Shown here: positions 19,383-41,991 of the stretch, one piece after another
Numbering within the stretch: the stretch's first letter is position 1
How the letters are laid out: each line of letters opens with the position of its first letter
Source of the DNA: Dehalococcoidia bacterium
GTDB taxonomy: Bacteria > Chloroflexota > Dehalococcoidia > GIF9 > DYGU01
Reading direction: 5' to 3'
NCBI GenBank assembly: GCA_042408205.1
Contig: JBHOQK010000025.1
Coordinates: 1,597-65,596, forward strand
Length of the DNA: 64,000 nt
Program-made: the position numbers and the translations under genes
Notes under the pieces: generated by a model
The model's input: the letters and a program-made list of their open reading frames with translations, nothing else
Databases searched by the model: none
What the model was told of the DNA's origin: nothing

Positions 19383-19534
19383 GGCAACCTTCCTTTTAGT
19401 TTATGATTGGTTTTTTTCCGAAAGGGCTTTTAGGCTGGTTATCTCGCCTTAGCGATTATTATACTGCTTTGTATTTAAGAAGGGAATAGGTTTGTTCTTC
19501 AGGGAATGATATAATAAATTTGGAAGGGCTGAGG

Positions 19535-20578
19535 ATGATAAAGGCTTTACTTTACGAAAAACTTAATGGCAACCGAGTTCGGTGTAATGTATGCCAGTGG
19601 CGTTGTGTTATCCTTCCGGACAAAGTTGGCGTTTGCCGGGTGCGCCGCAATTATGATGGTGAACTCTACCTTCTCAATTATGCGGAAGTATCTTCTATAG
19701 GTGTTGACCCGATTGAAAAGAAACCTCTCTTTCATTTTTTCCCGGGGAGTTTTGTTTTTTCTTTAGGGGGCTGGGGGTGTAATTTTCATTGTCAGCATTG
19801 TCAGAACTGGGAAATTTCTTGTGTTGAAGAGCCGGGAAAGGGTGGCAGAATTTCTCGGAAAATTTCTCCTGAAGAAGCCATAGAGTTAACCATCCACTAT
19901 CGTTGTGGAGGTATTTGTTGGACTTATAATGAGCCGGCAATTTGGTTTGAGTATACTTTGGAAGGAGCCAAGTTAGCCCGACAGAAAGGTTTATATACAG
20001 CTTATGTCACTAATGGTTACCTTACCCCTGAGGCTTTAGATGTTATTGGACCTTATCTGGAAGCCTGGCGGGTTGATGTGAAAGGTTTTTCTGACAATTT
20101 TTATCAGAAACTGAGTAAAATTTATCGGTGGCGTGGTATTTTAGAGGTGGCGAAGCGGGCTCGGGAGAAGTGGGGAATGCATGTAGAAGTGGTGACCAAT
20201 ATTATACCGACTATGAACGATGATGAAGAACAATTACAAGGTATTGCCCGGTGGATTTGTGATGAATTAGGGGAATTAACCCCCTGGCATGTAACCCGGT
20301 TTTATCCTCACTATCATTTGACCCATCTGCCGCCAACTCCTATATCAACCCTGGAAAAAGCTTATTATATCGGTAAAAAAGCTGGATTAAAATTTGTTTA
20401 TCTTGGGAATGTGCCGGGACACGATAAGGAGAATACTGTTTGTTATTCTTGTGGTAAATTAAACATAAGTCGTTTTGGTTATAATACCCGGGTAGTTGGT
20501 GTTGATGGTTCAAAATGTAAGTTTTGCGGAGCCGAACTTAATATTAGGCAAACTATGAGAGGACGAGAGAGATGGTAA
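19535..20578 (+). CDS. AmmeMemoRadiSam system radical SAM enzyme
   Basis: CNFHCQHCQNW radical-SAM motif. Its N-terminal Cys cluster and length resemble PFL-activase-like enzymes. It is followed by MEMO-like and AMMECR1-like genes. I prefer the ATG at 19535 to the TTG at 19520. Confidence 0.8.
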   Translation: MIKALLYEKLNGNRVRCNVCQWRCVILPDKVGVCRVRRNYDGELYLLNYAEVSSIGVDPIEKKPLFHFFPGSFVFSLGGWGCNFHCQHCQNWEISCVEEPGKGGRISRKISPEEAIELTIHYRCGGICWTYNEPAIWFEYTLEGAKLARQKGLYTAYVTNGYLTPEALDVIGPYLEAWRVDVKGFSDNFYQKLSKIYRWRGILEVAKRAREKWGMHVEVVTNIIPTMNDDEEQLQGIARWICDELGELTPWHVTRFYPHYHLTHLPPTPISTLEKAYYIGKKAGLKFVYLGNVPGHDKENTVCYSCGKLNISRFGYNTRVVGVDGSKCKFCGAELNIRQTMRGRERW

Positions 20579-21387
20579 AAGTTAGGAATCCAGCAGTATC
20601 AGGGCAATTTTATCCGGCATCCCCTTCTTTACTTCGGGCTCAGATTGAAGGTTTTATTGACCCAAAAGCAGTTAAGGAAGAGGTAATAGGCCTAGTCTCA
20701 CCTCATGCTGGATATATTTATTCTGGAGGGGTGGCTGGTGCCGTTATCTCCAAGGTTAGATTCAAAGATACCTTTATTATTTTAGGACCAAATCATACTG
20801 GGTATGGAAGTCCTTTTAGTATTATGGCTGAAGGGGTCTGGAAAACTCCCCTCGGGGAGGTTGAGATTGACTCAAGATTGAGTAAAAAAATATTAGAAAT
20901 CTCCAAATATTTAAAGGAGGATCATCTGGCTCATTTGAGGGAGCATTCTATTGAGGTTCAATTACCCTTTCTCCAGTATTTCAAAGAAGATGTTAAGATA
21001 GTCCCCATTGTTCTTGCCCCTGCCCCGGGTAGCACTTATAAAGAGATTGGACGGGAAATAGCTAAGGCAATCAAGAATTTAAATAAAGAAGTAATCATCA
21101 TTGCCAGTACTGATATGACCCATTATGAACCTCATCAGGTAGCGCAAAGGAAAGATAAACAGGCTATAGAGGCAATACTGAATTTAAATGAAGATGAGCT
21201 TCTTAAGCGAGTAGATGAGTTAGACATATCCATGTGTGGCTATGGACCGACGGTTAGTCTTATCTCCGCCAGTAAAGAATTAGGCGCCAAGGTAGCTGAA
21301 CTGATTAAATATCAAACAAGTGGAGATACCTCTGGTAATTACGCCAGTGTTGTTGGCTATGCTGGAATAATAATTAAGAAGGGGTAA
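20572..21387 (+). CDS. AmmeMemoRadiSam system protein B (MEMO1 family)
   Basis: [10 protein letters not shown]...[10 protein letters not shown]...GPNHTG blocks typical of the MEMO family. The start overlaps the upstream stop. Confidence 0.85.
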
Positions 21388-21392
21388 CTAAA

Positions 21393-21896
21393 ATGCATCC
21401 CTTGGTTAAATTAGCTAAGGAAACCGTTGAAAACTATATCCGCAAGGGCAAGGTGGTAAAACCGGAAGAGCTCACTCCGGAGATGAAGGAAAGAGCTGGT
21501 GTTTTTGTCTGTATTAAAAAACATGGTGAATTACGGGGATGTATTGGGACTTTCGAACCTACCCAAGCTAATGTAGCCGAGGAAATTATAGCTAATGCTA
21601 TCAGTTCTGCTACTCGGGATCCTCGGTTCTCACCAATAACTGAGGCAGAGCTACCAGATTTAGAATACATTGTAGATATTCTTACCCGTCCTGAACCGGT
21701 GACGGATATAAGACAGCTTGATCCGAAGAAATATGGGATAATTGTTGAGAGTGGCTTCAGGCGTGGACTCCTTCTTCCTGACCTGGAAGGAGTTAATACG
21801 GTTGAGGAGCAAATAGCTATCTGTCGGGCTAAAGCCGGCATACTTCCTGAAGAACCAATAAAACTTTATCGTTTTCAGGTGAGGCGATATAAGTGA
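21393..21896 (+). CDS. AmmeMemoRadiSam system protein A (AMMECR1 domain)
   Basis: [18 protein letters not shown] and RDPRFSP motifs typical of AMMECR1. Confidence 0.85.
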
Positions 21897-22957
21897 AGTT
21901 ATTGGTTATTGGTTTAGGCAAGGGTGGCTCTCGAATTGCTGATGAATTTGCTCAGTTAAATAAAAAAGCTAAAGCAGAGCGGAATGTGACTATATTAACG
22001 GCAGCATATGCCGCTTGCTCTGATGGGGAGACCTTAGAGAAGCTAATTTCTAAAGAGACAGATCTTCTGGTTCGGTTATTAGTGCCGGAACCTTCATCGA
22101 CAAAACCTAATGAGACAGTCCAAGCCATTAGTGAACGAATTTTATCAGCTATACGGCGGAGTGAATATTTTGATACTGAAGCTTTCCTGGTTATTGCTGG
22201 TGCTGGTGGCAATTTTGGTTCTAAGATGGCGCCTCTAATCGGACAAAAATTAAAGGAGCGCTTTGTTGGTAAGCCTATTTATAGCCTTCTGGTTCTTCCC
22301 TTCGAATCAGAAGAATTAACTGAGACCGAAGCAATTTATCGGGCAGCGGTTTGTCTTAAATCTCTTTACCGGGTGACTGAGGCTGTTTTTTTGGTGGACA
22401 ATGAAAAGTTGCGGCGAGGCAAGGTATCGTGGGGGCAGCCACAAATTAATCAGGAGATAGTAACCTTCTTTTATGACCTTTTATGTGCCAGTGAGGTTTC
22501 TGGGTCTAAATACGCTGGGGTAAGAAACTTAAGTGTTGGCGATATAATCCAGACCCTTTATGGTTTTACTGCTATAGGCACTGGGAAAGTTGAACTTACT
22601 TCACGGTTTTCCTTCTGGAGGTTACCTACGTTTCGAGAGAAGGGAGAGGAGCAATTGAAGGCTCTGGAGGCAATTAATTTAGCCTTAAACAATTTGTCGA
22701 TTGATTGTGGACTAAAAGATTCGGGCAAAGCTTTATATCTTGTTTCAGCCCCGGCTAAAGAAATGAGCGTCGATATGGCTAAGGCTTTAGCTGGTCGTTT
22801 ACGAGAACTGACCGAGGTTGCTGAAATTAGGGGTGGTGATTTTGCTGGTAGCACCAATTCAGTTCAAGTTACCGTGGTTTTGTCCCAACTTGCCTTTGTA
22901 GAAAAAGTAAAAAATTATTATGACAAAGCTGTTGCCTTTTTGAAATTGAAGAGATAA
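21893..22957 (+). CDS. tubulin/FtsZ-superfamily paralog with degenerate nucleotide-binding loops
   Basis: GTG start inside GTGA, overlapping the AMMECR1 stop, with SD ggtgagg. The N-terminus [19 protein letters not shown] is clearly paralogous to 26195..27373. The T4 signature reads GAGGNFGS, the NTD motif reads CSDGE, and the Gly-rich T3 region is absent. Confidence 0.6.
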
Positions 22958-22962
22958 TAAAT

Positions 22963-24273
22963 ATGACTTTTTTAGATAAAGATGTGCCTTTAGCATTTAG
23001 GCTGCGCCCGCGGAATTTTGACGAATTTGTGGGACAAGAACATTTAATTGGGGAAGGGAGGGTGCTTCGGAAATGTATTGAGATGGATCAGTTACCGTCT
23101 TTAATCCTGTGGGGTCCTCCTGGGAGTGGCAAAACAAGTTTAGCTTATGTTATTGCTAACATGACCAAGTCTCATTTTAGTCCTGTAAGTGCCGTTAATG
23201 CTGGTGTGGCTGATTTGCGCCAGATTATCAAGGAAGCTAAACAGCGCCGGAACTGGGGGCAAAGAACTATCCTTTTTATTGATGAAATTCACCGCTTCAA
23301 TAAAGCCCAGCAGGATGCCATTTTACCCTTCGTAGAAAAGGGAACGATAACCCTTATCGGAGCTACTACTGAAAATCCATCTTTTGAAGTAATTTCTCCT
23401 CTTTTATCTCGGTGTCGAGTATTTACTTTAAAACCTTTATCGGATAAAGAGATTGAACTTATTATCAAGAGGGCTTTAGAGGATGAAGAACGGGGGTTGG
23501 CTAAATTAAAGGTGAAGTTAAAGGATGAAGCCTTAGAATATCTTATTCTTATGTCCAATGGGGATGCTCGAATAGCTCTCAATGCTTTAGAAATGGCAGC
23601 TTGGGCAACACCTCCTGATGAGACTGGGCAGCGGTGTCTGACTTTGCCAATTATTGAAGAAGCTCTTCAAAGTCGGACTTTTCTTTACGATAAGGCTGGT
23701 GACCAGCATTATGACCTTATTTCAGCTTTACATAAATCCTTAAGGGGTTCGGCTCCTGATGCCGCTTTATATTGGTTAGGGCGGATGCTGGAGGCTGGGG
23801 AAGACCCTTTGTATATAGCTCGGCGCTTAATTCGCTTTGCCTGTGAAGATATCGGAATGGCTGACCCCCAAGCCTTAGTCATCGCTGTCGCTGCTCAGCA
23901 AGCTGTCCATTTTGTGGGCATGCCTGAAGGTAATCTGGCTTTAGCTGAAGCCGTGGTCTACTTAGCTACAGCTCCGAAAAGTAACTCTATATATGAGGCT
24001 TATAGTCAAGTGCAGCAAGATATAGAAAAAGGTCGAAACGATCCCGTACCCCTTCATTTGCGCAATCCAGTTACTCCACTAATGCGTGGCTTTGGATATG
24101 GAAAAGACTATAAATACCCCCATGACTACCCAGGACATTTTGTTGCTCAAGAGTATTTGCCCAAGAGTTTAGCCGGAAAGCGCTATTACCTGCCTAGTGA
24201 CCAAGGTTATGAAAAAGAAATTCAAGTTCGACTCCAAAATTGGTGGGGAAATAAGAAAACTAAACCAGACTAA
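22963..24273 (+). CDS. rarA: replication-associated recombination protein A (AAA+ ATPase)
   Basis: GPPGSGKTS Walker A, LFIDEIHRFNK Walker B/sensor, and C-terminal MgsA-type blocks (HYDLISALHKSLRGS, YPHDYP). Confidence 0.9.
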   Translation: MTFLDKDVPLAFRLRPRNFDEFVGQEHLIGEGRVLRKCIEMDQLPSLILWGPPGSGKTSLAYVIANMTKSHFSPVSAVNAGVADLRQIIKEAKQRRNWGQRTILFIDEIHRFNKAQQDAILPFVEKGTITLIGATTENPSFEVISPLLSRCRVFTLKPLSDKEIELIIKRALEDEERGLAKLKVKLKDEALEYLILMSNGDARIALNALEMAAWATPPDETGQRCLTLPIIEEALQSRTFLYDKAGDQHYDLISALHKSLRGSAPDAALYWLGRMLEAGEDPLYIARRLIRFACEDIGMADPQALVIAVAAQQAVHFVGMPEGNLALAEAVVYLATAPKSNSIYEAYSQVQQDIEKGRNDPVPLHLRNPVTPLMRGFGYGKDYKYPHDYPGHFVAQEYLPKSLAGKRYYLPSDQGYEKEIQVRLQNWWGNKKTKPD

Positions 24274-24354
24274 ACCCCCTCACCCCTAAATTCCTCTCTG
24301 TTAGAAACTTTTATCGCCCAGCCTAAACAAAATACCACCACGGACATTTTTAAA

Positions 24355-24383
24355 TAGACTTATTAGAACATTAGTGCTAATAT
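24355..24383 (+). promoter_or_regulatory. promoter of the terminase module (TAGACT-17-TAATAT) containing the conserved element TTAGAACATTAGTGCTAA (24363..24380)
   Basis: The spacer and -10 are almost identical to the promoter at 42449..42477. The ATG at 24390 lies 6 nt after the -10 box, with no SD. Confidence 0.5.
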
Positions 24384-24389
24384 ATAGCC

Positions 24390-24578
24390 ATGAAGCTTTT
24401 AAAGTTAGCCTTAGAAACCCAGCGCTATGACCTGGCAGCCCATGCCTTAGTCTTTGGCTTAATCAAAGCCAAGATTGACAATGGCAGACAGGGAAATGGT
24501 AAAGACCAGAGAAAGTCAAGACAAGCCAAAAAGACCATCATTCTACGAACAAGCCTTAAAGGAAGCCGAAAAGCTTGA
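24390..24578 (+). CDS. possible leaderless small ORF (62 aa), uncertain
   Basis: The ATG lies 6 nt downstream of the predicted -10. The first ~30 aa look helical and the remainder is a basic tail. It overlaps the next ORF in the +1 frame. Confidence 0.25.
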   Translation: MKLLKLALETQRYDLAAHALVFGLIKAKIDNGRQGNGKDQRKSRQAKKTIILRTSLKGSRKA

Positions 24579-24831
24579 ACTCCAAGAAGCTTTAGGCATT
24601 GATGGGATTGACCAGGAAATAGCGCTACTAAGGATAAAACTCAGGGAGCTTATTGTGTCTCAGCCCGATAGAATAGATTTACACCTTGAAGCTGCTTCTA
24701 CTATCGCCCGGTTAGTTAGAACCAGATACTTGATCACCAAGGAGCAAAAGAAGTCCCTAAAGGAAGCTATCACTAAAGTCATCACCGAAATTGCTGTTCC
24801 TTTAGGCGTTAAAGTGTTAATGAGGGAGTAA
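24481..24831 (+). CDS. hypothetical protein immediately upstream of the large terminase (small-terminase candidate)
   Basis: The position is the only evidence. Its stop is 1 nt from the terminase ATG, the protein is helical and charged, and I recognise no motif. Confidence 0.4.
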   Translation: MADREMVKTRESQDKPKRPSFYEQALKEAEKLELQEALGIDGIDQEIALLRIKLRELIVSQPDRIDLHLEAASTIARLVRTRYLITKEQKKSLKEAITKVITEIAVPLGVKVLMRE

Positions 24832-24832
24832 C

Positions 24833-26212
24833 ATGAAGTTAAGACCATATCAATTAGAAGTGGCTAAAGCCGTAGTCGAAAGTGTCATCGAAAAGAAAGG
24901 CTTAACCTTCTCCGTAGAAATAGCCCGGCAGGGAGGGAAAAATGAACTCTCTGCCCATTTGGAGGTACTTCTTTTGACTCTGTTTATGGCTAAAGGTGGT
25001 AATGCCGTTAAATGTTCTCCTACCTTTAAGCCCCAGACTATTATCTCAATGATGCGACTTAAGGAAAGACTTGATGAGTTCGGCTTTACTGGTATTTATC
25101 GTCCTGAAATGGGCTATATCCTTCGCTTGGGGAATGCTTGCCAAATCTTTTTATCTGCCGATGAGCAAGCCTCCGTAGTCGGTCATACTGCCGATATCCT
25201 CTTAGAAATTGATGAAAGTCAAGATGTCAGTAAAGACAAATATACTAAGGATTTCCGACCCATGGCTTCAGCCTACAACACTACTACCGTCCATTACGGC
25301 ACGACCTGGGATGATACCACTCTCTTGGAAGAGATAAAGCAAATGAACTTAGAGCTGGAAAAGAAAGACGGCATCAAAAGACATTTTCGCTATGACTGGC
25401 AGGAAGTAGGTAAATATAACCCCGATTATTTAGCCTTTGTAGAAAGTGAACGGGAAAGGTTAGGCGAAAATCATCCCCTGTTTTTAACCCAATATGCTCT
25501 TAAACCCATAAGAGGCGGTGGTGGCTTTCTAACCAATCTTCAGATTGCCCAGATGTTAGGCAATCATCCCAGACAAAAATACCGAGAAGAAGGTAAAACT
25601 TATATTGCCGGCATTGACTTAGCTGGGCAGGAAGAACAATTAGATGAGTTAATTCTCACCAGACCCTCCCGGGATGCCACTGTTATCACCATTGCTGAAT
25701 TAGACCTTCGCCACCAATCCGAAGCTAACTTAGTTCAGCCAAGTCTAAAAATAGTCGAACACTATGCCTGGATTGGCAAAAAACACACCGAAGCCATAAA
25801 CACCATTATTGACTTAATGAGAAATACTTGGAATATCAGTAAAGTAGTAGTCGATGCCACGGGAATTGGTGAGCCCATCGCAGCCATCCTAAAACAAGCC
25901 CTGGGAAGTAAGGTCGTTCCCTTCGTCTTTACCCAGAAATCTAAATCAGAACTGGGCTTTGAACTTTTAGCCTTTATCAACTCAGGCAGGCTAAAAATCT
26001 ACCGGCAAGATGGCTCAGAAGATTATAAAGAACTAATGTATCAGCTTGAGAAAGCTAAGTCCGTTTACCGCCCTAACCAGACCCTAAACTTCTTTGTCGA
26101 CCCGCAAGACGGGCACGACGATTATCTAATGAGCTTAGCCCTCTTAGTTTTTGGGGCTAAAGAATGGCAACCCCGAGTAGCTCGGGGTTTGACTTCAAAT
26201 AAGGGTTGGTAA
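24833..26212 (+). CDS. phage terminase large subunit-like protein
   Basis: 459 aa. Walker A-like ARQGGKNE and Walker B-like ILLEIDESQ in the N-terminal half. RNase-H-like nuclease pattern in the C-terminal half (IAGIDLAG ... VVVDATGIG ... GHDDYLMSLAL). SD gagggag. Confidence 0.7.
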   Translation: MKLRPYQLEVAKAVVESVIEKKGLTFSVEIARQGGKNELSAHLEVLLLTLFMAKGGNAVKCSPTFKPQTIISMMRLKERLDEFGFTGIYRPEMGYILRLGNACQIFLSADEQASVVGHTADILLEIDESQDVSKDKYTKDFRPMASAYNTTTVHYGTTWDDTTLLEEIKQMNLELEKKDGIKRHFRYDWQEVGKYNPDYLAFVESERERLGENHPLFLTQYALKPIRGGGGFLTNLQIAQMLGNHPRQKYREEGKTYIAGIDLAGQEEQLDELILTRPSRDATVITIAELDLRHQSEANLVQPSLKIVEHYAWIGKKHTEAINTIIDLMRNTWNISKVVVDATGIGEPIAAILKQALGSKVVPFVFTQKSKSELGFELLAFINSGRLKIYRQDGSEDYKELMYQLEKAKSVYRPNQTLNFFVDPQDGHDDYLMSLALLVFGAKEWQPRVARGLTSNKGW

Positions 26213-27373
26213 TTCTTTAGCTGCTTCTTCCATATCCCGGAGGCGGCTGGTAGTTTCTTTTATCCTTTCTTTCTGACTGCGGGCAAAGGCAGAAGCCCGG
26301 TCGTAATAATCTCTTATTTTTTGGACAAAAGCCAGCTGGGAAAACATTACGGTAACATCAATAGCTCCTTTTTCCCAAGGGAAGTCACCGCTTCTAATAA
26401 CAGCATTTTCAGCTAATTCTCTAAGATAATCCCCCAAGCCTTTAGCCATATCCATATTCATGTGTCGAGCTGGAGCGGCTAACAGAAAGAGAGCTCGCCC
26501 CGCATCCGCTGGATTACAGGCTAAAGAAAGCTCACTTAAGGCAGCATCCATAGCTTGCATAGCCCGAAGAGTCTCTCGACTCTTTTCTCGGAAAGTGGCG
26601 GTGGGTCTTTCCCAAGGGAAGCGCCAGCGGGGGATTTCCGTTCTGCCCACGCCAATCACAGTCCAGCCATCAATAGACTGGATAATATCGCCGGCATCGA
26701 GGGTCTTTGCCCCCACATATTTGTATTTAGTTACTTCACCAGCACACATTATGTCATAAAAGGGTTCAACAATTTGCCTATTTATTCGCTGTAAGTTTGT
26801 GGCTAAAGAGGCATCTTTTCTTACATAGCGTTGATTATCAACTAAGAAAACACCATCGGCAACAGTGTGGATAGACTTAAGACAGGTAGCTGTATTATAG
26901 ACACTTCTTAATTCAGCCATTTCCTCGTGTTCAAAGGGGAGGACTATCAGGGCATAAACAGGCTTGCCAATATAACGCTCTTTAATCATTTGGGTAATAA
27001 CGGAGATGGCTCCAGAGCCAGTACCACCAGCCGCGCCGGCAATGAGGAGAAAAGCATGAGTTTCATAAAAGCGGGGAGCTGTCCGGATGGCATCAATAAC
27101 TTTGTCCCCATCTTCTTTAGCCAGCTCGGCTCCCATTTCATTTACTTTACCGACGCCGTGCCCCCAAGTCTTACGCCCGCCAATAAGAATGCGGTGGAGA
27201 TAATCAGAGCCAATATAAGTTAATCCTGTTAGGTCAGCTTGGTCAGTGTTTACGGCAAAAGCTCCGGTAACGATAGTTGTCTTTCGCTCACTCTGGGCTC
27301 TGGCATTAAGCCGGACAAATTCATCAGCAATCCGTGAACCACATTGTCCTAAACCAATAACCATTAATTTCAT
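26195..27373 (-). CDS. tubulin/FtsZ-superfamily GTPase (intact motifs)
   Basis: [19 protein letters not shown] (T1, GQCG as in tubulin/CetZ), AVNTDQADL (as FtsZ NTDAQAL), GHGVGKVNEMG (T3-like), IAGAAGGTGSG (T4 tubulin signature), TLDAGD (T7-like NxDxxD). SD agagagg. Confidence 0.7.
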   Translation of the reverse strand: MKLMVIGLGQCGSRIADEFVRLNARAQSERKTTIVTGAFAVNTDQADLTGLTYIGSDYLHRILIGGRKTWGHGVGKVNEMGAELAKEDGDKVIDAIRTAPRFYETHAFLLIAGAAGGTGSGAISVITQMIKERYIGKPVYALIVLPFEHEEMAELRSVYNTATCLKSIHTVADGVFLVDNQRYVRKDASLATNLQRINRQIVEPFYDIMCAGEVTKYKYVGAKTLDAGDIIQSIDGWTVIGVGRTEIPRWRFPWERPTATFREKSRETLRAMQAMDAALSELSLACNPADAGRALFLLAAPARHMNMDMAKGLGDYLRELAENAVIRSGDFPWEKGAIDVTVMFSQLAFVQKIRDYYDRASAFARSQKERIKETTSRLRDMEEAAKELPTLI

Positions 27374-27409: not shown

Positions 27410-27437
27410 ATTATAACCATAGTTTTCAGTTTGTCAA
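27410..27437 (-). promoter_or_regulatory. near-consensus promoter for the tubulin-like gene (TTGACA-16-TATAAT)
   Basis: Read on the minus strand. It starts immediately after the stop codon of the upstream IPT-repeat gene. Confidence 0.6.
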
Positions 27438-29207
27438 CTATTCCTCCAATTTCATTTGTTTTAATACTTGGCGCAGGCGGAAAATTATAGCCCCTATTAG
27501 CAAAATAAATCCTATAACCGAGACGATAAATAGCCAGGTCTGTATCAAACCAACTCGGAAGGATTGGGGAGTTGTCCACGGGCTTTCATTTTGAGCCCCA
27601 TCTACAGCTTTTACTCTCCAATAATAAATACCGTAGCTTAAAGCTTCTTTACTGGTTAATTTATAAGTAGTTTCATTTAGGTTAACTTTGCGCAAACTAA
27701 GATTGGTAAAGTCTTCGGTCTTAGCTATTTCCAGATTATAACTGACGCCACTGGGGTCAGTAACGGGAGACCAGCTAAATTGGGGGGTAGCTTTACCTAA
27801 GAGATTGACCCGGGCTCCCGGGGATGGCAATAGGAGATTTGGGGTTGGTGGTGGGGTTGTTTCCATAGTTACTGAAGAAATAACAGAATTACCAGCAGCA
27901 TCTTTAACTTCTATTTTATGTCCTCCACCTTTGCTTTTGGGAGCTTTGAAGGTAATAGTGAAACTACCAGTAGTATCTGTTATTGCTGTAGCTACTTCCA
28001 GAGTGTCATAAATAATGGTTATAGGTGAATTCTTAGCAAAGCCACTGCCGACAATAGTAATCGTTGTGCCTACAGCTATGTTAGTTGGGTTAACTTTTAT
28101 GGCGGAAGTTACAGTAAAGATTAGGTCGGGGATTTCGGTATCTGGGGTAATAGTCCCGGAGGCATCAATAATATGACTACCTTTGGCTCCGGGTGGCACT
28201 TCCAAAGTAGTTATCCACGAACCCGTAGCATCGGCGGTAATATCGCTTTTAACCACATTTCCATCATAAAGGAGGCGGATATTCTTTTCATTTCCAGCAA
28301 AGCCGCTACCAGTAATGGTTATGGTACTCCATACTGGTGCTGAAGTTGGCTCAACCTTTATCCTGGGGGCAATAGTAAAAATAACATCAGGAACTTCGGT
28401 AGCTAAGGTAGTGCCCATAGCATCAATGATATGATCGCCTCGGATAGCCGTCGGCACTGAAAAGGTAGCTGTCCAGCTTCCTTTGTCATCGGCGGCAATA
28501 CCTGTTTTAACGGCAGTGCCAGCAAAGGTAACCCGGATATTCGTTTCATTGGCGTTAAAGCCGGTGCCAGTAACGGTGACTAAAGTACCGACCCCGCCTG
28601 AGGTAGGGGATAGGCTGATTTTTGGGGTGACGGTGAAGGTTCCAGCTGGCACCTCGGTTTCTAAAGTGATCGCGCTAAAGCCAACAACCTGATGGGCTCC
28701 CTTAGCACTTATCGGCACGGTAAAAGTCGTTGTCCAGGAGCCACTGCTATCGGCGGTGATGCCTGTTTTTTGCTCTATACCATCATAAGTTATTTTGATA
28801 TTAGGTTCGGTAGCTGTAAAGCCCCTGCCAGTGACTGTGACAGTAGTCCCCACTGGTCCACTGCTTGGGGTTAGGCTAATACTTGGGGTGACTCGGAAAG
28901 TTTTACTGTCAGTGTTTGGAGGGGAGGCATCATCAGTAACAGTAATAGTATGGTTACCCTTAACGCTGGGGGGGATAGTGAAAGCGGCAGTAATTGTTCC
29001 CCCTTGAACTAATCCCCGAGCCATTTCCACCCCATCATAAGTGACTCTGAAGTTAATACCGCTAAAACCACTCCCAGTGACGGCGACAGCAGTACCTACT
29101 GGACCTGAATCGGGAGTGAGGCTGATGCTGGCAGCAGCATTAACACCTCTCGGTATTAAAGTTATCCCGAGGAAAACTATCAAAAAAGCCCAAATTTTTA
29201 TTTTCAT
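27438..29207 (-). CDS. secreted IPT/TIG-like repeat protein with C-terminal Fn3-like YYWRV module and TM anchor
   Basis: Signal peptide. At least six ~85-aa repeats of the form ISLTP.SGPVGT.VTVTG.GF...I.VTYDG. The C-terminal module is FSWSPVTDPSGVSYNLEIA...YYWRVKAVDGAQNESPW followed by a hydrophobic helix. Confidence 0.7.
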   Translation of the reverse strand: MKIKIWAFLIVFLGITLIPRGVNAAASISLTPDSGPVGTAVAVTGSGFSGINFRVTYDGVEMARGLVQGGTITAAFTIPPSVKGNHTITVTDDASPPNTDSKTFRVTPSISLTPSSGPVGTTVTVTGRGFTATEPNIKITYDGIEQKTGITADSSGSWTTTFTVPISAKGAHQVVGFSAITLETEVPAGTFTVTPKISLSPTSGGVGTLVTVTGTGFNANETNIRVTFAGTAVKTGIAADDKGSWTATFSVPTAIRGDHIIDAMGTTLATEVPDVIFTIAPRIKVEPTSAPVWSTITITGSGFAGNEKNIRLLYDGNVVKSDITADATGSWITTLEVPPGAKGSHIIDASGTITPDTEIPDLIFTVTSAIKVNPTNIAVGTTITIVGSGFAKNSPITIIYDTLEVATAITDTTGSFTITFKAPKSKGGGHKIEVKDAAGNSVISSVTMETTPPPTPNLLLPSPGARVNLLGKATPQFSWSPVTDPSGVSYNLEIAKTEDFTNLSLRKVNLNETTYKLTSKEALSYGIYYWRVKAVDGAQNESPWTTPQSFRVGLIQTWLFIVSVIGFILLIGAIIFRLRQVLKQMKLEE

Positions 29208-29410
29208 ACTACTTTAAGCCGATAATACTTAGCCCTGCCTATTTGTCGTGAAACTTCAATGATATTCCTTTCCTCAAGTCTGGCTAAACTGGCCACAACC
29301 TTCTCCCGACTCTTAATCCCCAAACCCCTCATTATCTCCGGAATCGCATAATCCCGCCTCAAGTCAGCTTTCATTAGATTGATGATTTCTTTTTCTATTT
29401 CTTTTTCCAT
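29204..29410 (-). CDS. small winged-helix DNA-binding protein
   Basis: 68 aa from the internal ATG at 29410; the longer track start lies upstream of the predicted -10. wHTH-like LARLEERNIIEV. The stop overlaps the next start (ATGA). Confidence 0.5.
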   Translation of the reverse strand: MEKEIEKEIINLMKADLRRDYAIPEIMRGLGIKSREKVVASLARLEERNIIEVSRQIGRAKYYRLKVV

Positions 29411-29427
29411 TTCAAATCTTTTGTGAA

Positions 29428-29456
29428 ATAGTAGCACAAATAAAAAGAAATGTCAA
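29428..29456 (-). promoter_or_regulatory. promoter for the wHTH / IPT-repeat operon (TTGACA-17-TACTAT)
   Basis: Read on the minus strand, just downstream of the rho stop. Confidence 0.55.
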
Positions 29457-33259: not shown

Positions 33260-35833
33260 TCATTTTATTTTCCGGCTGAGGAGTGACAGAGCCACTATAG
33301 TCAAACCTATGGTGGCAGCAGTTCCAGGGCGGCCACAGCCTTTTTTAGGTGGTGGGGGTTGGGGTGGTGGCGGTGGCTGCTGTACTGAGGGAGGAGGTGG
33401 CGGTGTCTTTGGGGTTTGGGGGTCAAAGTAATGATATAAAACATTAGTGGCAATAGTTTTCCCTTCTTTAACGATAATCGTTGCGTCTATTGCCCAGAGG
33501 TAAACGCCGTCGCTGGCTTTGAGAGCTTTAGGGAGACGGCAGAATTGGGGTGGCAGGGGTGGTAAGTAAGGTTCTGGTGGTGGTGGTTTATATTTTGGAA
33601 TACCTGAAGTGAGACTATCTAAGGTGGGGGTTGGGCTGGCGGGAGCCAGCAGGCGAAGGGCACCGCTGCTGGGGGGGAGAAATTCCGGATAGGGTGGTGA
33701 AGGTGGCGGCTGGAACCAATAAAATGAGGCATAAACAACTCCCCAGTGTTGAACTAAACCGCTGAGGCGCTGATAGCTTTCAACTCGCTTGATCTGAGTC
33801 CACTCTTTGCTGGTGTCTATAACAAAGCGGTAAATACCTTCTCCAGGAGTATCGGAGGCAGCATAAATAGTCTTGTTAGTGCCAAAATCTATATCAGCAA
33901 CTACTTGTATATTACCTCTGCCGCCGCCAAGGGGGAGAGTAAGAAAGAAAGTAGCTCCGCCATCAGGGGAATAGCTCACCTGACCATTTTCGGCGCCACC
34001 AACCAAGACATAATTACCCGGGGCAGTAGTAATCATATTAGCCTTCCCAATACGACTATCTACTGGTCGGCTCCAGGTCTTGCCGCCATCGGGGCTCTTG
34101 ACCACTTGCCCGGCGCTATTGACTATATAAAGAATGTTTGGGCTGGCAATTGCCATATCTATAGTTGGTAGGGGGGCTATTATTTTTTCAAAGGTTTGTC
34201 CCATATCTTTTGAGGTATAGATAGTCGTGGTGCCACTAACGGCAGTATTAGTCTCCGCCAGATAAAAAGTTTTACCCTCAGGGTCATCGGGGATAATTCT
34301 AAGGAGGGCGGTATTAGTTTGGGTAGCGAAACATAATATTCTTTCCCAGCTTTTTCCTTGATTAACCGTTCGCCACAGGCTATCAAAGCCGGGGGAGGTA
34401 GTTACCAGATAAACTGTTTTAGAATTTAAGGTGGGGGCGACATCTTGGAAGGAGGAGGTGCTGGTATTAATTTCAGTATCAATAAGGCTTATTTGGTTAA
34501 AAGAGACACCTCCATCCAGACTCAGGGATAGGGCTGATTCATCCTTTGCGGTCATGATGGGGCTGGAAGTAGCGGTATAAACCGCTTTTCCATCGGGAGA
34601 GACTCGGACTAAAGCATTGCCCGGACCGGTAGGGGGTTTTAGGGACAGTTGCCAAGTGGGGGGTGAGGCTTGGGGATTAGTCGTCCGTCTGATTTGGACT
34701 GAAGCTGTTTCCGGGCTGCCTTTGACTTCCCCCGCCCAGAGGTTACCGGAAGCAACGGTGCCGAAATAAGTTAGACTGGCTATAGGAATATCAGCGCCGG
34801 CATTAGCATTAAGTCGGGTGACGGTAGTATTGTCTAAGCGGTAGACATCGGGATTACCGGTAGCCCCGCCGGCTATTTGGGGCTGGCTGTTCCAGGCGAT
34901 ATAAAGGCGTCGTTTAGCTATTTCTGCCCCGGAGTAGTCTTGGGGCAAAACCATAGTAGAGCTCAGGATTCTACCGCTTTGTCCGGCTTTTGGTCCCGGG
35001 TGGGCGGTGCCTTCGGCTGGTGAATCAGTGCCGGGAGTTTCTATCCTTACTGGATAGCCAGCAAAGAGCTTAGGGTCATTCCAGGTGAGGGGCAAAATTC
35101 GGGTATTTAATATATTAAGGAAAGTATCGCCGTCATTATTTCCTGGCTGGTCAGTAGTTGATGCCACGGCTAAGATAGTGAAGTCAAGGGGGTAGTTAGG
35201 CGAAATAGCTACTGCGGTGACATCACCGCCGGAGAAGCCTTTTACTTGGTAAGGGTCGGTGAGGTCTTCCCATTTTCCCGGGGTGGGGAAAGTGAAGCGA
35301 GCTACAATCCCATAGCTATAGCCATCATTGAGAGAAGCGCTGCCGACAATAATGTCTCTAACGGCGCCAATAGCTGGCGAAATAGCTATGTCCTTAATTA
35401 AAGTCGGGGGCAAGTTGGGGATAGCTCCAGTTTTGATGAAAGTCCTCCCCCCATCAGTAGAAATATGGACTTTAGTGCCATCTTCAACTATAGCCAAAAA
35501 GAAAGGGTCATCAGGGGCTAAGGCTAAACCAGTAAGATTGCCCAAGATACCCTGATGCCTTAGCTCGGAAGTTAGTTCTATCCAGGTAATGCCAGCATTT
35601 GTGGATTTAAATAATCGAAAATTAACGCTGTCTAAGGCAAAGAAAGTAATGCCATCCTTACCGATGGCTAAATGGGTTATTTCGGAAGGGCTCAGGATAA
35701 CCAAACCGTCACTACTGGGAGTGGGGAAAATAGACCAGCTCCCTGAGGTAGCAACCGCCGGACTTATGGTTATGGGCAAGACCAAGAGAATAAGACTAAG
35801 CCTCAAAATTAAATTTCTCCTTTGTTTTTTCAC
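33260..35833 (-). CDS. large secreted Asp-box (BNR) beta-propeller protein with Pro-rich stalk and C-terminal anchor
   Basis: 857 aa, GTG start with SD aggagg, signal peptide. Repeated Asp-boxes (STDGGRTF, STNAGITW, SLDGGVSF, SPDGGKTW, SPDGGATF). PPPPP runs, then GCGRPGTAATIGLTIVALSLLSRKIK. Paralog of 38764..41991. Confidence 0.65.
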   Translation of the reverse strand: MKKQRRNLILRLSLILLVLPITISPAVATSGSWSIFPTPSSDGLVILSPSEITHLAIGKDGITFFALDSVNFRLFKSTNAGITWIELTSELRHQGILGNLTGLALAPDDPFFLAIVEDGTKVHISTDGGRTFIKTGAIPNLPPTLIKDIAISPAIGAVRDIIVGSASLNDGYSYGIVARFTFPTPGKWEDLTDPYQVKGFSGGDVTAVAISPNYPLDFTILAVASTTDQPGNNDGDTFLNILNTRILPLTWNDPKLFAGYPVRIETPGTDSPAEGTAHPGPKAGQSGRILSSTMVLPQDYSGAEIAKRRLYIAWNSQPQIAGGATGNPDVYRLDNTTVTRLNANAGADIPIASLTYFGTVASGNLWAGEVKGSPETASVQIRRTTNPQASPPTWQLSLKPPTGPGNALVRVSPDGKAVYTATSSPIMTAKDESALSLSLDGGVSFNQISLIDTEINTSTSSFQDVAPTLNSKTVYLVTTSPGFDSLWRTVNQGKSWERILCFATQTNTALLRIIPDDPEGKTFYLAETNTAVSGTTTIYTSKDMGQTFEKIIAPLPTIDMAIASPNILYIVNSAGQVVKSPDGGKTWSRPVDSRIGKANMITTAPGNYVLVGGAENGQVSYSPDGGATFFLTLPLGGGRGNIQVVADIDFGTNKTIYAASDTPGEGIYRFVIDTSKEWTQIKRVESYQRLSGLVQHWGVVYASFYWFQPPPSPPYPEFLPPSSGALRLLAPASPTPTLDSLTSGIPKYKPPPPEPYLPPLPPQFCRLPKALKASDGVYLWAIDATIIVKEGKTIATNVLYHYFDPQTPKTPPPPPSVQQPPPPPQPPPPKKGCGRPGTAATIGLTIVALSLLSRKIK

Positions 35834-38763: not shown

Positions 38764-41700
38764 TTATGCCCGGCGACCAGTCCTGACGATGAGGATCAAG
38801 GTGACGATCACCAGGATAGCCCCGATGGCAATCACTGTCCACACCCAGGCCGGGGTTGGTGGTGGTGGTGCTGGTGGTTCCGGCGGTGGTGGTGGTGGTA
38901 GTTTCACCACCGTGAAGTTAGCCACTGGGCTGGGGTTGCCCACCGGGTCAATAGCCTGAACCTGCCAGAAGTAAGTGCCAGGGGCAAGGTCAGTGCCTAC
39001 CTGATAAGCCGGTGTGGTCACCTCTTTAGGCGTGCCATCAACAGTCTTGGTCAGGGCTGGGTCAGTGGCAATGACAATCTTATACTTCTTAGCCACAGTC
39101 CCGGGCTCCGGTGACCAGGAGAAGGCTGGCATAGCTTTCTCATCGTGCTTATAGGTCAAGGTAGCCCCATTTGCTGGAGATAGGATCAGAGGACCAAGGT
39201 GAGGCGCTCCTACCGGGACACCAGCCTCCACCATGAAGCTCCTCACCGCTGACCACGGGCTCAGGATAAGGTCACCAGTAACTTCGTCCCACACTCTGAC
39301 TCTCCAGTAATAGGTCTTGCCAGCCTCAAGGTTAAGTGTGATAGCACCGGTAGGACCGACAACCGCAGCCGGTTTCGCGACATCAGGCGGAGAGTAGTCA
39401 GTTTTATCCAGGAGGACCTGGGTAAATTCGGGATCCTTTGCTATCTGTATATGGTAACGTGTAGCCAGGTCAATGAAAGCCCAAGTTAAGGTAACATTGG
39501 CAGCTCTGCCTGAGACTGGGTCAATGCCAATCGTAGCTTTGTCTGCAGGTGTAGTCAAGTCAGGTCCAGCCTTGGATAAGGCATCCAGGTAGGCAACAAG
39601 TGTATCATCGCCGTTCAATGTCCAAACCAGGACACCATCAGATACCTTTATTGACTGGGGTTGGAGACTGAACATGCCACTAACGGTAGCTATATCCATC
39701 TGCGTCCACTCTGGTCCCGGTGGAATAGGAGTTGTTGGGTTAAGGGAACGATCAGCCCAACGGTTTGTTGAGTCACCAGCATAGAGGGTACCACAGTGAG
39801 TAGCCAAACCGGTTATGGTCCGATTATCGCCAGAGATGAGCGTTGACCAGACAGTGCTAACGCCGATAATCCAGCGCCCAATACCCTGACCAGCAGTAGC
39901 AGAACCAGCATAGATAATCTTGTTGGTATCGAAGTCCTTATCAGCAATTACCTCCACATTACCTGTACCCCAGGCAAGGGGGATGAGGGTGAAGCTGGCA
40001 CCACCATCAGTGGAATAGCTAACACGACCACTAGTGCCACCAACAAAGACGTTGCCCTTCTTATACACACTTATCATATTGGCAGCGCCAACCATGCTGT
40101 CCACAGGAATTGACCAAGTCCAACCAGCGTCGGTTGACTTAGCCACAAAGCCAGAAGTGCCATCGACACCATAAATAGTCAGTTTGTCTTCAACGGCTAA
40201 GTCCCTCAGGCTAGCGATATTGCTGGCTCGGGATCCCCAGGTTTCACCTTTATTGGTGGTAACACGAATCTTGTTTGAGTCGGTAGCCTCTATGTAATAA
40301 ACAACAGAGCCATCTGGGGTGTCAGGAGATGGTCTGATTTTGGCTAACCCATTGCCTGCCCAGGCTCGTGTCTCAACTCTTTCCCACCTTGTCCCGTGAG
40401 GGATAGTAGTGCTGCGGAATATACTGTCATAGGAAGCGGTACTCTGATTAGCAATAAAGACTACTGAGCCATCAGCGGATACACCGACATCAGTCAACTT
40501 TGAGTCGCCTGTGGCAATGTCGGTATCTATAAGCCCTCTTTGGTTAAAGGAAACACCATCATTAGTTGAAGCTGAGAAGGCTGTCTCGTCATTGGGCTCA
40601 GCCGCAACCAGGAAATTAGCTGTGTGTTTCTCAGGAACGCCAGTACTGGTAACGGCAAAAGCTATCTTGCCATCAGGGCTCCACCGGACAAAGGCATTAC
40701 CCGTTGGAGTTGTGCCTATAGTTTTGCCTCCGGTGGGTGGCTTAGCTGAGTCTAGCCAAGTGGGGAAACGAGCCTGTGGATCCATGGTACGTTTCACTTG
40801 GGTAAAGGGTGCTGCCCAACCCACTTGTCCAGCTAAAAGCTTACCTGTATCGCGCGTACCATGATAAGCCAGGCTGGTTATAGATAAATCAGCTCCAGCA
40901 TTAATGTCAAGCCGGAAAACAGTAACATTGTCAACGCGGTAAACATCGTCAGTAGCTGCTGCGTCTCCACCGCTATCAATGGTGAGCCACACCCGGCGCA
41001 TAGCTGCCTCAGCGAAGTTGGCGTCTGAAGGTATAGCCATGTCCGAAGTTCGCCACTGACCCTCCTTAGCTCCAACCGTGCCAGGTGGGTACTGCAGATT
41101 TACTGGCCACAGAGTATAAATAGCAGCCCCATTCCAGGCGGGCACAGCCCCTAAGTTGGCCGCCTGTAACCAGGCACTGGCAGCATCGTGAGTGATAGCC
41201 AATAGGGTTCTATCAAGTGGGAACGCGGGGGAGAACCGGACTGAGCTTACATCTGAATGTGTCCAACCGGCGATAGTAGGAGGAGGACCAGGGGTATAGC
41301 CCGGTATTTTCCACGAAGTGGCAACAGCCCCGACCTCAAGAATAGCCGCAAAACCATGCCCATTATCGTCACTAGTAAACCACTTGCCGTCAGTACCTTT
41401 ATCAATATCGTCAGGATCATATACACCCACGGCTACAGTGCGTATAGTGCCCAGACCACCAGGTATAGACTTGGCTATGTCAAGAGCCCTTGGGGCAATG
41501 CGAGCGTTAGCAGTAAGACCACCCCAAAGGTTTGGCAATGGACCGGTGTAGCCCCAGTTATGCCCGCCATCGTTGGAAATGACCACATACTGGTTAGCTA
41601 TTCCAGTGGCACTCTCCCCGGCAATAGCCACAAAATTGGGGTCATCAGGAGCTACGGCTATTGCCCAGAACTGAGTAAATGTTGCTGGTAAACCGGTAGC

Positions 41701-41991
41701 TGCCTGTACCCGAGCTGTTAAGTCAAGCCAAGTATAGCCACCATCGGAAGACTTCCAAAAGCGCGGGGCAGCTGCGCGACCGATGGCATAAATGATTTTG
41801 TCTGTAGCTACGCCGATCTGATAAATCTCTGTACCTGGAGCAATAACATTGTGAGTGGTACTCGGCGTTGTTATCACCCGCCACCTCATTGGCGTTGGTA
41901 CCTCAGCTTGAGCTGTTGGCGCCAACGGCACTAAGCTGACTACCAGTGTCAGGATGGCTAAACCAGCCAAGATTTTGGGAATTTTACTCAA
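38764..41991 (-). CDS. giant secreted Asp-box beta-propeller protein with two Fn3-like YYWRV modules, Pro-rich stalk and TM anchor
   Basis: 1075 aa, TTG start with SD aaaggagg, signal peptide. Asp-boxes (SSDGGYTW, SNDGGHNW, TTNKGETW, STDAGWTW, STDGGASF). Modules ending YYWRVRVWD and YFWQVQAID. The C-terminus is PPPPPPEPPAPPPPTPAWVW plus a helix plus RTGRRA. Confidence 0.65.
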   Translation of the reverse strand: MSKIPKILAGLAILTLVVSLVPLAPTAQAEVPTPMRWRVITTPSTTHNVIAPGTEIYQIGVATDKIIYAIGRAAAPRFWKSSDGGYTWLDLTARVQAATGLPATFTQFWAIAVAPDDPNFVAIAGESATGIANQYVVISNDGGHNWGYTGPLPNLWGGLTANARIAPRALDIAKSIPGGLGTIRTVAVGVYDPDDIDKGTDGKWFTSDDNGHGFAAILEVGAVATSWKIPGYTPGPPPTIAGWTHSDVSSVRFSPAFPLDRTLLAITHDAASAWLQAANLGAVPAWNGAAIYTLWPVNLQYPPGTVGAKEGQWRTSDMAIPSDANFAEAAMRRVWLTIDSGGDAAATDDVYRVDNVTVFRLDINAGADLSITSLAYHGTRDTGKLLAGQVGWAAPFTQVKRTMDPQARFPTWLDSAKPPTGGKTIGTTPTGNAFVRWSPDGKIAFAVTSTGVPEKHTANFLVAAEPNDETAFSASTNDGVSFNQRGLIDTDIATGDSKLTDVGVSADGSVVFIANQSTASYDSIFRSTTIPHGTRWERVETRAWAGNGLAKIRPSPDTPDGSVVYYIEATDSNKIRVTTNKGETWGSRASNIASLRDLAVEDKLTIYGVDGTSGFVAKSTDAGWTWSIPVDSMVGAANMISVYKKGNVFVGGTSGRVSYSTDGGASFTLIPLAWGTGNVEVIADKDFDTNKIIYAGSATAGQGIGRWIIGVSTVWSTLISGDNRTITGLATHCGTLYAGDSTNRWADRSLNPTTPIPPGPEWTQMDIATVSGMFSLQPQSIKVSDGVLVWTLNGDDTLVAYLDALSKAGPDLTTPADKATIGIDPVSGRAANVTLTWAFIDLATRYHIQIAKDPEFTQVLLDKTDYSPPDVAKPAAVVGPTGAITLNLEAGKTYYWRVRVWDEVTGDLILSPWSAVRSFMVEAGVPVGAPHLGPLILSPANGATLTYKHDEKAMPAFSWSPEPGTVAKKYKIVIATDPALTKTVDGTPKEVTTPAYQVGTDLAPGTYFWQVQAIDPVGNPSPVANFTVVKLPPPPPPEPPAPPPPTPAWVWTVIAIGAILVIVTLILIVRTGRRA

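Follow-up and report, generated by a model that had tools for sequence, protein, structure and literature searches.

Paired CetZ-like tubulin homologues in Dehalococcoidia, one of them with an eroded nucleotide face

CetZ proteins belong to the tubulin/FtsZ superfamily and have been described as archaea-specific (PMC9856176), whereas related sequences from Dehalococcoidia have received a passing note as "sparse" ones (PMC9871819) and were listed by Santana-Molina et al. among the CetZ-like groups as "sparse paraphyletic groups". In this study, we mainly focus on a 64,000-nucleotide stretch of DNA from a Dehalococcoidia bacterium (contig JBHOQK010000025.1, positions 1,597 to 65,596; hereafter the window), which encodes two CetZ-like proteins, the intact B and the eroded A, and on how this pair compares with described tubulin-like systems. 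The nearest precedent is the CetZ1/CetZ2 pair of haloarchaea, co-conserved paralogues of which the rarer antagonizes the abundant one: in Haloferax volcanii, CetZ2 counteracts CetZ1 at ratios of 1:40 to 1:5, and it occurs only in CetZ1-bearing species (PMC13556191). Both CetZ1 and CetZ2 are active guanosine triphosphatases (GTPases), whereas A lacks the T3 loop and the threonine (Thr) of the T4 loop.

Duplicated tubulin-fold pairs with one active and one silent site also include alpha/beta-tubulin, BtubA/B, Asgard AtubA/B, and Heimdall alpha/beta, although the matches of A and B to heterodimeric tubulins in the PDB are weak and partial (E ~1e-9 to 1e-4). In alpha/beta-type tubulins, both subunits bind guanosine triphosphate (GTP), and the silent site is the one whose partner lacks the catalytic T7 residue. 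The genes of such heterodimers are adjacent and co-expressed and the subunits alternate along the polymer, whereas the genes of A and B are separately transcribed, and A, with an unconstrained top face, has lost its own pocket while keeping the catalytic T7 aspartate (Asp), which differs from the silent-site logic of tubulin. The likeness to alpha/beta-tubulin proposed by an earlier reading of the letters and open reading frames (ORFs) without database searches (the sequence-only reading) is therefore apt only in part. FtsZ, TubZ, and PhuZ share the superfamily fold and GTPase domain with A and B, with similarity to FtsZ confined to the N-terminal domain (E ~1e-10); unlike their loci, those of A and B have neither ftsA or division-and-cell-wall (dcw) neighbours, nor a viral or plasmid context, nor a presence in IMG/VR. 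Regulation by a defective subunit has precedents as well: engineered FtsZ interface mutants with one defective longitudinal face cap filament ends at low ratios, and the degenerate FtsZ-like domain of plant ARC3 can regulate or inhibit assembly. The former were made in the laboratory and the latter is a multidomain protein of eukaryotes, whereas A would, by analogy, be a natural stand-alone CetZ capper.

Family placement and motif state of A and B

Both ORFs were found at exactly the coordinates given by the sequence-only reading (Table 1), every motif string quoted there is present, and the proposed paralogy holds, with 168 of 369 residues identical in a BLASTP alignment of A and B (46%, E=1e-107). 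Membership of the tubulin/FtsZ superfamily, and the suggestion that the proteins are CetZ-like rather than FtsZ-like, were likewise upheld by profile searches and fold comparison, archaeal CetZ proteins being the best full-length matches of both A and B. The Pfam Tubulin family (PF00091) matches A with 63.7 bits and B with 106.8 bits (cutoff 33), and the CetZ-specific C-terminal domain CetZ_C (PF21011) with 46.7 and 56.7 bits, respectively (cutoff 21.6). For A and B alike, the top sequence matches in the PDB are H. volcanii CetZ1 (4b46) and CetZ2 (4b45) and a Methanosaeta CetZ (3zid); against CetZ1, phmmer gives E=6e-43 for B (31% identity) and E=2e-19 for A (25% identity). A profile of the B clade aligns with 4b46 from end to end (positions 1-390, E=9.6e-59) and also matches 4b45 (E=2.4e-38) and 3zid (E=2.3e-19), whereas its matches to FtsZ and tubulins are limited to the N-terminal domain, at ~1e-10 to 1e-8 (FtsZ, E=2e-10). 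AlphaFold2 models of A (predicted local distance difference test (pLDDT) 88.7; predicted template modelling score (pTM) 0.90) and B (pLDDT 80.5; pTM 0.83) display the two-domain tubulin/FtsZ fold, comprising a nucleotide-binding N-terminal domain, the core helix H7, and a C-terminal domain. Foldseek searches of the PDB with these models returned CetZ, FtsZ, and TubZ structures only, with template modelling scores up to 0.86, and CetZ took ranks 1-3 for A (CetZ1, CetZ2, 3zid) and 1-2 for B (CetZ1, CetZ2). Motifs held in common with CetZ include GHGVG in T3, the block (I/V)RGGD(F/Y)P, and, aligned with CetZ1 E218, an acidic residue in T7. We conclude that A and B are paralogous members of the CetZ family in a bacterial, Dehalococcoidia-wide branch, and that neither is a canonical FtsZ, TubZ, or PhuZ.

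That neither protein is the FtsZ of the cell, as had been surmised, agrees with these data. Against the NCBIfam FtsZ equivalog model TIGR00065, B scores 58.6 bits (cutoff 295.2) and A has no match; against the TubZ-type Pfam family Tubulin_2 (PF13809), B reaches 14.7 bits, under the cutoff of 27, and A has no match. Neither ftsA nor dcw/mraZ-mraW genes were detected in the syntenic loci or among the 37 window ORFs scanned, with 12 ORFs of at least 150 amino acids (aa) at the window ends lying outside the scan, and the window contains no third tubulin/FtsZ homologue. Dehalococcoidales are reported to have no peptidoglycan or dcw genes, an S-layer-type wall, and a separate mraZ-mraW-ftsA-ftsZ cluster (PMC10608941). 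The name "cell division protein FtsZ" borne by database relatives of A and B is a wrong over-call, and these labels need correcting.

The motifs of B are T1 GLGQCGSR, AVNTDQADL, T3 GHGVGKVNEMGAE (GHGVGKVNEMG), T4 GAAGGTGSG, and T7 TLDAGD. An alignment of 218 homologues separates two clades with fixed, distinct motif states, and those of clade B are near-invariant (T1 GxGQCG; NxD AVNTD; T3 GHGVGK[VI]NE[ML]GAE; T4 GGTGSG; T7 LDAGD). The T4 loop of B (clade-invariant) fits the tubulin signature [SAG]-G-G-T-G-[SA]-G, and that of A does not. Behind a predicted long helix, the C-terminus of B (26198..26290) ends in ...AAKELPTLI, and the corresponding terminal peptide of the clade, ...AAKx[LI]P[ST]L[IL] (e.g. 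DIPSLL, ELPTLI), has its proline conserved at 92% and its leucine at 94%. FtsZ binds the membrane anchors FtsA, ZipA, and SepF through a C-terminal D-I-P-x-F-L peptide; the resemblance of the B peptide to it is only a lead.

In A, ACSDGE stands in place of NxD, the T3 segment is gone, T4 reads GAGGNFGSK, and T7 reads NLSVGD. The sequence-only reading had described one copy with eroded GTP-binding loops and a retained T7 acid; this description proves true of a whole conserved clade rather than of the window alone. Clade A has T1 G[DNK]CG, a variable NxD motif (AVNND), a deletion of the Gly-rich part of T3, T4 G-x-[LFIV]-GSG, in which Thr is replaced by Leu, Phe, Ile, or Val, and T7 mostly LG[IV]GD. 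The catalytic T7 acid, D217 in A, aligns with B D229 and with CetZ1 E218, the residue mutated in the published GTPase-dead CetZ1, and is conserved in at least 90% of clade A; the first T7 Asp (CetZ1 D215, B D226) is Gly or Ser in most of the clade. Erosion is graded. T3 is deleted in every member except the basal P0137, which still carries a degenerate loop of T3 length (GQGIVE), and one subclade keeps T7 LDAGD together with T4 GSLGSG. In the subclade of the window, the last T4 Gly (GNFGSK) and the NxD motif are missing as well, and the A of the window therefore represents the degenerate extreme of its clade.

The loss of constraint in A is selective. The ratio of conservation in A to that in B is near or above 0.9 in S1-H1 (1.00), H4 (0.99), H7 (0.95), T7-H8 (0.91), and the C-terminal domain (1.03), and it is low in T2-T3 (0.65) and after T6 (0.44). 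Top-face segments have an entropy of 2.0-2.75 bits in A versus 0.7-1.0 in B, and ~34 of the 43 columns conserved in B only lie within residues 41-79, T4 117-118, and 181-197. T3 contacts the gamma-phosphate in FtsZ and tubulin structures, and T5, T6, and H7 elements contact the ribose and base. By comparison with FtsZ/tubulin/CetZ protofilament structures, we take the eroded elements of A to form the nucleotide pocket together with the longitudinal face at the "top", and T7-H8 is presumably part of the "bottom" face inserting into the pocket of the next subunit. Constraint has thus been lost on the nucleotide face (T2-T3, the T4 Thr, and the post-T6 segment), whereas the T7-H8 face, H7, and the C-terminal domain of A match those of B in conservation. 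The terminal-peptide residues P389 and L391, conserved in B, fall in a gap in A, which ends directly past the globular domain; the ends of clade A proteins are short, variable, and often Lys-rich.

Comparison of the window with its closest relative (L083) gives a ratio of nonsynonymous to synonymous substitution rates (dN/dS) of 0.12 for A (dN 0.162), 0.04 for B (dN 0.041), and 0.04-0.08 for the neighbours, ratios that are rough since dS is near saturation. A is the fastest-evolving protein of its operon, and only the neighbouring TIG surface protein discussed below diverges faster, in one comparison. The ORF of A is intact in all 28 distinct genomic copies, and 41 columns are invariant across 27 members of the clade. 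A therefore evolves ~4x faster than B, under purifying selection.

Among 80 full-length clusters within the 150 best matches, the only other group with the triple pattern of a deleted T3, a degenerate T4, and a retained T7 consists of long CetZ-like proteins of Methanomicrobiales, such as Methanogenium organophilum WP_268187180.1 (748 aa) and Methanomicrobium sp. MDD3407685.1 (917 aa). In this group (P0455, P0459, P0479, P0482, P0483, P0486, with a length range of 388-917 aa for these six), T3 is deleted, T4 is degenerate (GLGGNV-LD and similar), and T7 LDAGE and the RSGDYP block are intact. These proteins show the same erosion as clade A but are archaeal, closer to CetZ1 than to A, and far longer than A (575-917 aa); to judge from the sequences, the two erosions apparently arose as independent events and look convergent. 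No paper on the Methanomicrobiales group was found.

Distribution and origin of the paralogues

Searches of species-representative genomes yielded ~235 genomic loci with homologues, all from Dehalococcoidia/Chloroflexota metagenome-assembled genomes (MAGs) except for a few probably mis-binned contigs, and B-type genes are seen in no fewer than 539 matched stretches. B itself matches over 6,000 protein clusters. When 1.84 billion cluster representatives were searched exhaustively with a profile, only 542 clusters proved related, 52 with E<=1e-30; of the 80 full-length ones mentioned above, clade A corresponds to essentially one, and several others of Dehalococcoidia type have a scrambled T3 with an intact T4. 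The window also encodes a bacterial Rho and ordinary housekeeping genes, and these Dehalococcoidia loci depart from the archaeal-only distribution of CetZ. CetZ is also part of the conserved gene core in a major class of bacteria. B is a new bacterial representative of a known family that had hardly been noted in bacteria before, and A is new as a conserved CetZ paralogue which, from its sequence, combines an eroded pocket with a retained T7.

As a separate observation, B-type genes occur on contigs binned as Thiorhodovibrio sp. (L069/L122), Deltaproteobacteria bacterium (L150), and Acidobacteriaceae bacterium (L231). They are 63-76% identical to a Dehalococcoidia B query, and mis-binning, not transfer, is the probable explanation.

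In neighbour-joining trees built from ~366 columns and rooted on three archaeal CetZ sequences as the only outgroups, A is monophyletic in 60 of 60 bootstraps and A plus B separate from archaeal CetZ in 60 of 60. Because B alone is monophyletic in only 22 of 60, A may be either sister to B or nested within it. A is consistently farther from the archaeal outgroups than B (1.87 versus 1.48), which indicates acceleration of A.

A-type genes are found only in genomes whose B falls in the B subgroup of the window, and across that Dehalococcoidia subgroup the synteny of A and B with Rho, transaldolase, CTP synthase, and RarA is conserved. For 23 of the 28 distinct A genes, B lies on the same fetched locus. 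Three of the five remaining loci are short (2.5-7.2 kb), in another (L011) B lies 16 kb off on the same contig, and for the last (L012, 18.8 kb) B-type genes occur on other contigs of that MAG. A was never met without B where sequence sufficed to look, and B-only genomes are common.

A resides in an operon of radical-SAM, Memo, AMMECR1, and RarA genes. Its GTG start overlaps the AMMECR1 stop (GTGA). Of the 28 distinct A genes, 22 have AMMECR1 next to them and 21 have RarA; in L083 and L003, the closest relatives, no RarA lies between the two paralogues. The radical-SAM/Memo/AMMECR1 set ("AmmeMemoRadiSam", of no known function) with RarA/MgsA forms an operon (19520..24273) that is conserved across Dehalococcoidia with or without A. 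In genomes without A whose B is 60-63% identical to that of the window, AMMECR1 and RarA are separated by 64-80 nucleotides (nt) with no remnant, and A is therefore an insertion into this older operon, of which RarA is the original downstream member; RarA provides context rather than a demonstrated partner. The most parsimonious scenario is that B was duplicated locally, the copy landing in the operon at a distance of a few kb and diverging fast thereafter; a duplication of greater age with several subsequent losses would be a less simple alternative. At the same junction of one genome without A (L078:12447-13419), there is a 973-nt insert with no CetZ remnant, which carries an opposite-strand ORF of 100 codons that looks toxin-like (RelE/ParE-type, by eye only).

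In another large lineage of Dehalococcoidales, two CetZ-like genes with intact motifs lie ~4.3 kb apart on one strand (L162:5734-11179), an arrangement seen in ~55 similar loci (L161-L233). The pair flanks two opposite-strand ORFs of 174 and 726 aa with no known function and lies near GAPDH, enolase, and dnaX. It is an independent duplication, so that duplication is recurrent and erosion is specific to clade A. One lineage has thus kept two intact paralogues while another has eroded one copy stepwise, with the catalytic finger and its face retained, a natural experiment that bears on how the reliance of tubulin-like polymers on active and inactive subunits arose, as the authors of the CetZ1/CetZ2 work have also asked.

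Cultured Dehalococcoides mccartyi was not among the best 80 matches of three genome-collection scans, which contained MAGs only. D. mccartyi 195 has, besides canonical ftsZ/ftsA (DET0343/0342), two further "FtsZ" genes, DET0589 and DET0636 (PMC5102406), and in proteomics of strain BTF08 an "FtsZ/Tubulin GTPase" (btf_0551) and an "FtsZ" (btf_0595) were detected, both lower in co-cultures with barrel-shaped cells (PMC8163811). Their possible orthology with A and B is an unverified lead.

Possible functions and competing explanations

By analogy with CetZ1 in haloarchaea, B would be a GTP-dependent filament former that shapes the membrane or envelope and thereby the cell, with its C-terminal peptide serving as an anchor or partner-binding handle. 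A would neither sense the gamma-phosphate nor hydrolyse GTP in its own pocket. Because it keeps the T7 face and the Asp that completes the site of a neighbour, we propose that A docks bottom-first, with the T7 face, on a B subunit or filament at its GTP-bearing end, where it would complete the active site of B and trigger or tune hydrolysis; because its top face is unconstrained and it is tail-less, the filament would be ended or altered at that point. A would then be a low-abundance end-capping or turnover-regulating subunit rather than a 1:1 building block, and whether it stabilised or limited the filament would depend on the kinetic polarity of CetZ polymers. To this layered explanation, with B as the filament GTPase and A as a docking regulator, we assign a probability of about one half: the family placement and the erosion pattern are solid, while the contact between A and B and the capping are what we infer.

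The signals around B are those of a separate transcription unit. B has a Shine-Dalgarno sequence and a promoter-like site that is the sole 12/12 match of sigma-70 type between 19.3 and 31.5 kb (Table 1), and 100 of 110 related loci have a site matching at 10 or more of 12 positions ahead of B, versus ~4% of random 150-nt windows. The terminator-like hairpin past its stop falls within the 3′ end of the convergent terminase gene.

Several points weigh against the docking-regulator explanation. The contact between A and B is a proposal drawn from conservation patterns, the role of B in cell shape comes by analogy, and the view that B is abundant and A present at the level of operon enzymes is what promoter and start-codon features suggest. 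A may still bind a nucleotide such as GDP, since the T1 glycines, T5 LPFE.E, T6 DN, and the H7 Asn are retained, so that its description as "non-binding" by the sequence-only reading goes too far in view of the T5, T6, and H7 elements. The loss of the first T7 Asp may weaken the activation of hydrolysis in clade A, the location of A among the AmmeMemoRadiSam and RarA genes could instead point to a role that has nothing to do with B, and both a nested and a sister position of A fit the trees.

A broader proposal extends the explanation to the whole envelope: clade A would be a natural, nucleotide-insensitive, end-capping and hydrolysis-activating subunit of a bacterial CetZ filament, an independent bacterial active-plus-inactive design convergent with Methanomicrobiales, and CetZ filaments would shape a cell with an S-layer and no peptidoglycan, FtsZ being left to division. 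In this full form the proposal is tentative and, taken as a whole, open to serious doubt. As judged from their motifs, A and B look like an independent bacterial case of active and inactive tubulin-like subunits, and the coincidence of peptidoglycan loss and an archaeal-style S-layer with CetZ suggests that the type of envelope, not the domain of life, decides the use of CetZ. Both proteins are small and soluble, which makes the system open to expression, mixing, and imaging.

The best-surviving alternative is that A acts independently of B and of nucleotide, as a scaffold or adaptor for the products of its operon (radical-SAM/Memo/AMMECR1 and RarA). Its translational coupling to AMMECR1, its distance of 5 nt from RarA, a placement kept in most A-bearing genomes, and the loss of the tail and GTP-sensing loops of B would all suit such a role. 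However, the operon exists unchanged without A, so that the association looks like an accident of insertion next to the parental gene; RarA is not beside A in L083 and L003, A was accompanied by B wherever sequence sufficed to look, and the conserved T7 Asp and T7-H8 face are hard to explain without engagement of a tubulin-type site. We consider this alternative unlikely. A functional link between A and AmmeMemoRadiSam was itself downgraded, given the operons without A and their 64-80 nt junction.

Rather less probable is an obligate 1:1 heterodimer of the alpha/beta-tubulin kind, favoured by the sequence-only reading, in which A-B-A-B filaments would exchange and hydrolyse GTP at the B site only. 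The combination of one motif-complete and one eroded paralogue, both with the T7 acid, the tight linkage of the two genes, and the speculation of the CetZ1/CetZ2 authors on such evolutionary routes speak for it. It needs a conserved interface between the top of A and the bottom of B, yet the top-face segments of A are its most variable ones, and an alternating heteropolymer is disfavoured because the nucleotide face of A varies so strongly among orthologues. In addition, the genes form opposite-strand units with very different expression signals, A is devoid of the conserved C-terminal peptide of B, and B is far commoner than A, the frequency of B-only genomes implying that B works without A.

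It is also improbable that A is a working GTPase which binds phosphate in a non-standard way and forms filaments of its own, in the manner of CetZ1-CetZ6 or FtsZ1/FtsZ2. Its fold is fully preserved with high model confidence, T1 glycines, T5, T6, the H7 Asn, and G-x-x-G-S-G are kept in most of clade A, and another Dehalococcoidales lineage has two fully intact paralogues; against this, T3 is deleted throughout the clade bar P0137, the T4 Thr is replaced, the subclade of the window has lost further pocket motifs, and erosion is progressive, as expected after the pocket was released from constraint.

Two further readings were rejected and carry almost no weight. Although a genuine terminase large subunit gene (TerL) and a small upstream ORF converge on B and the window contains portal, capsid, and tail-like genes, a phage or mobile-element tubulin of PhuZ/TubZ type is contradicted by the conserved chromosomal synteny, the wide B family with housekeeping-like identities, the sub-cutoff Tubulin_2 score, the absence of B-type proteins from ~2.9 million IMG/VR viral contigs (one spurious 48-residue match), and a PHROG scan in which A had no significant match and B reached only E=0.002. 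That A is a pseudogene in decay, derived from B, as its rate and several lost catalytic motifs might suggest, is at odds with the intact ORFs, the dN/dS, the invariant columns, a C-terminal domain as conserved as in B, and the confident AlphaFold2 fold.

Gene neighbourhood and phage-head genes

Table 1. Features of the window around the two CetZ-like genes (positions within the window)
Feature	Position	Strand	Remarks
Radical-SAM, Memo, AMMECR1 genes	19520..21896	+	Pfam; host operon of A, upstream of A
CetZ-like A	21893..22957	+	354 aa, GTG start; derived paralogue without C-terminal tail
RarA/MgsA AAA+ ATPase	22963..24273	+	Pfam MgsA_C 243 bits; 5 nt 3′ of A
Terminase large subunit homologue (TerL)	24833..26212		Convergent with B; 459 aa, full-length; preceded by a 118-aa ORF
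Terminator-like hairpin past B stop	26169..26189	-	9 bp stem, 6 GC pairs, T-rich tail; consensus scan only
CetZ-like B	26195..27373	-	392 aa, ATG start; predicted motif-complete tubulin-superfamily GTPase
B promoter-like site	27410..27437	-	TTGACA, 16 nt, TATAAT; 12/12 consensus match
TIG/Ig-repeat type I membrane protein	27438..29207	-	Pfam TIG 96.7 bits; directly upstream of B
77-aa ORF	29204..29437		Weak helix-turn-helix (HTH) DNA-binding matches; between Rho and TIG gene
Surface protein, 857 aa (predicted)	33260..35833		BNR/sortilin repeats
Surface protein, 1,075 aa (predicted)	38764..41991		Ig-like domain
Portal-capsid cluster	42468..50264	Same throughout	Compact; ~16.5 kb from TerL

Across Dehalococcoidia, the syntenic order runs transaldolase (Tal)-Rho-(HTH)-TIG-B, converging on small ORF-TerL, followed by a variable spacer and radical-SAM-Memo-AMMECR1-A-RarA. 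The earlier statement that rarA and a terminase gene lie between A and B is correct, but the bracketing has a positional meaning only: RarA is absent from this place in L083 and L003, A was inserted into an older operon, and the terminase most plausibly belongs with a cluster at 42.5-50.3 kb.

The TIG protein has a signal peptide, five TIG repeats, a transmembrane segment at 550-583, and a short basic cytoplasmic tail, according to its hydropathy topology. In 41 of the 44 loci with sufficient flanking sequence its gene is next to B, and it is present in two or three tandem copies in deeper lineages (L075-L081); the protein is a conserved neighbour and a candidate envelope partner of B. The idea that its cytoplasmic tail is a conserved docking motif for B found no support, the tail being short, basic, and lineage-variable. 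A promoter-like site that matches at 10 of 12 positions and has an extended -10 TG lies at 29428..29456, ahead of the 77-aa HTH ORF.

TerL is 33% identical over 95% of its length to the terminase of Bacillus phage vB_BboS-125 (E=6e-53) and also matches Terminase_6C and a terminase PHROG. Its homologues number at least 3,798 (E <= 0.001). Identity is 68-84% for the best 120 of them, among which the named ones are "hypothetical proteins" of Dehalococcoidia/Chloroflexi. Unusually, TerL is a single conserved chromosomal gene, strongly constrained by purifying selection (dN/dS ~0.04), and adjoins B in 34 of 44 loci. The portal-capsid cluster encodes an SPP1-type portal, a 145-aa ORF, an HK97-type capsid, six ORFs of small or medium size, and a tail-like protein of 686 aa. 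In the nearest relative, the portal is syntenic and 84% identical, and a search reaching close relatives only found it in 15 loci. Between this cluster and the packaging block (24475..26212) lie B, the TIG protein, Rho, transaldolase, and CTP synthase. Most plausibly, the terminase goes with this dispersed head module and not with the tubulin homologues, and the split TerL and portal-capsid blocks look like a domesticated, gene-transfer-agent-like element rather than a prophage.

Scans of the window for tRNA and Rfam families gave no RNA genes. Two very large predicted surface proteins are encoded between CTP synthase and the portal cluster (Table 1), and the GC content rises up to ~0.51 at 38-42 kb.

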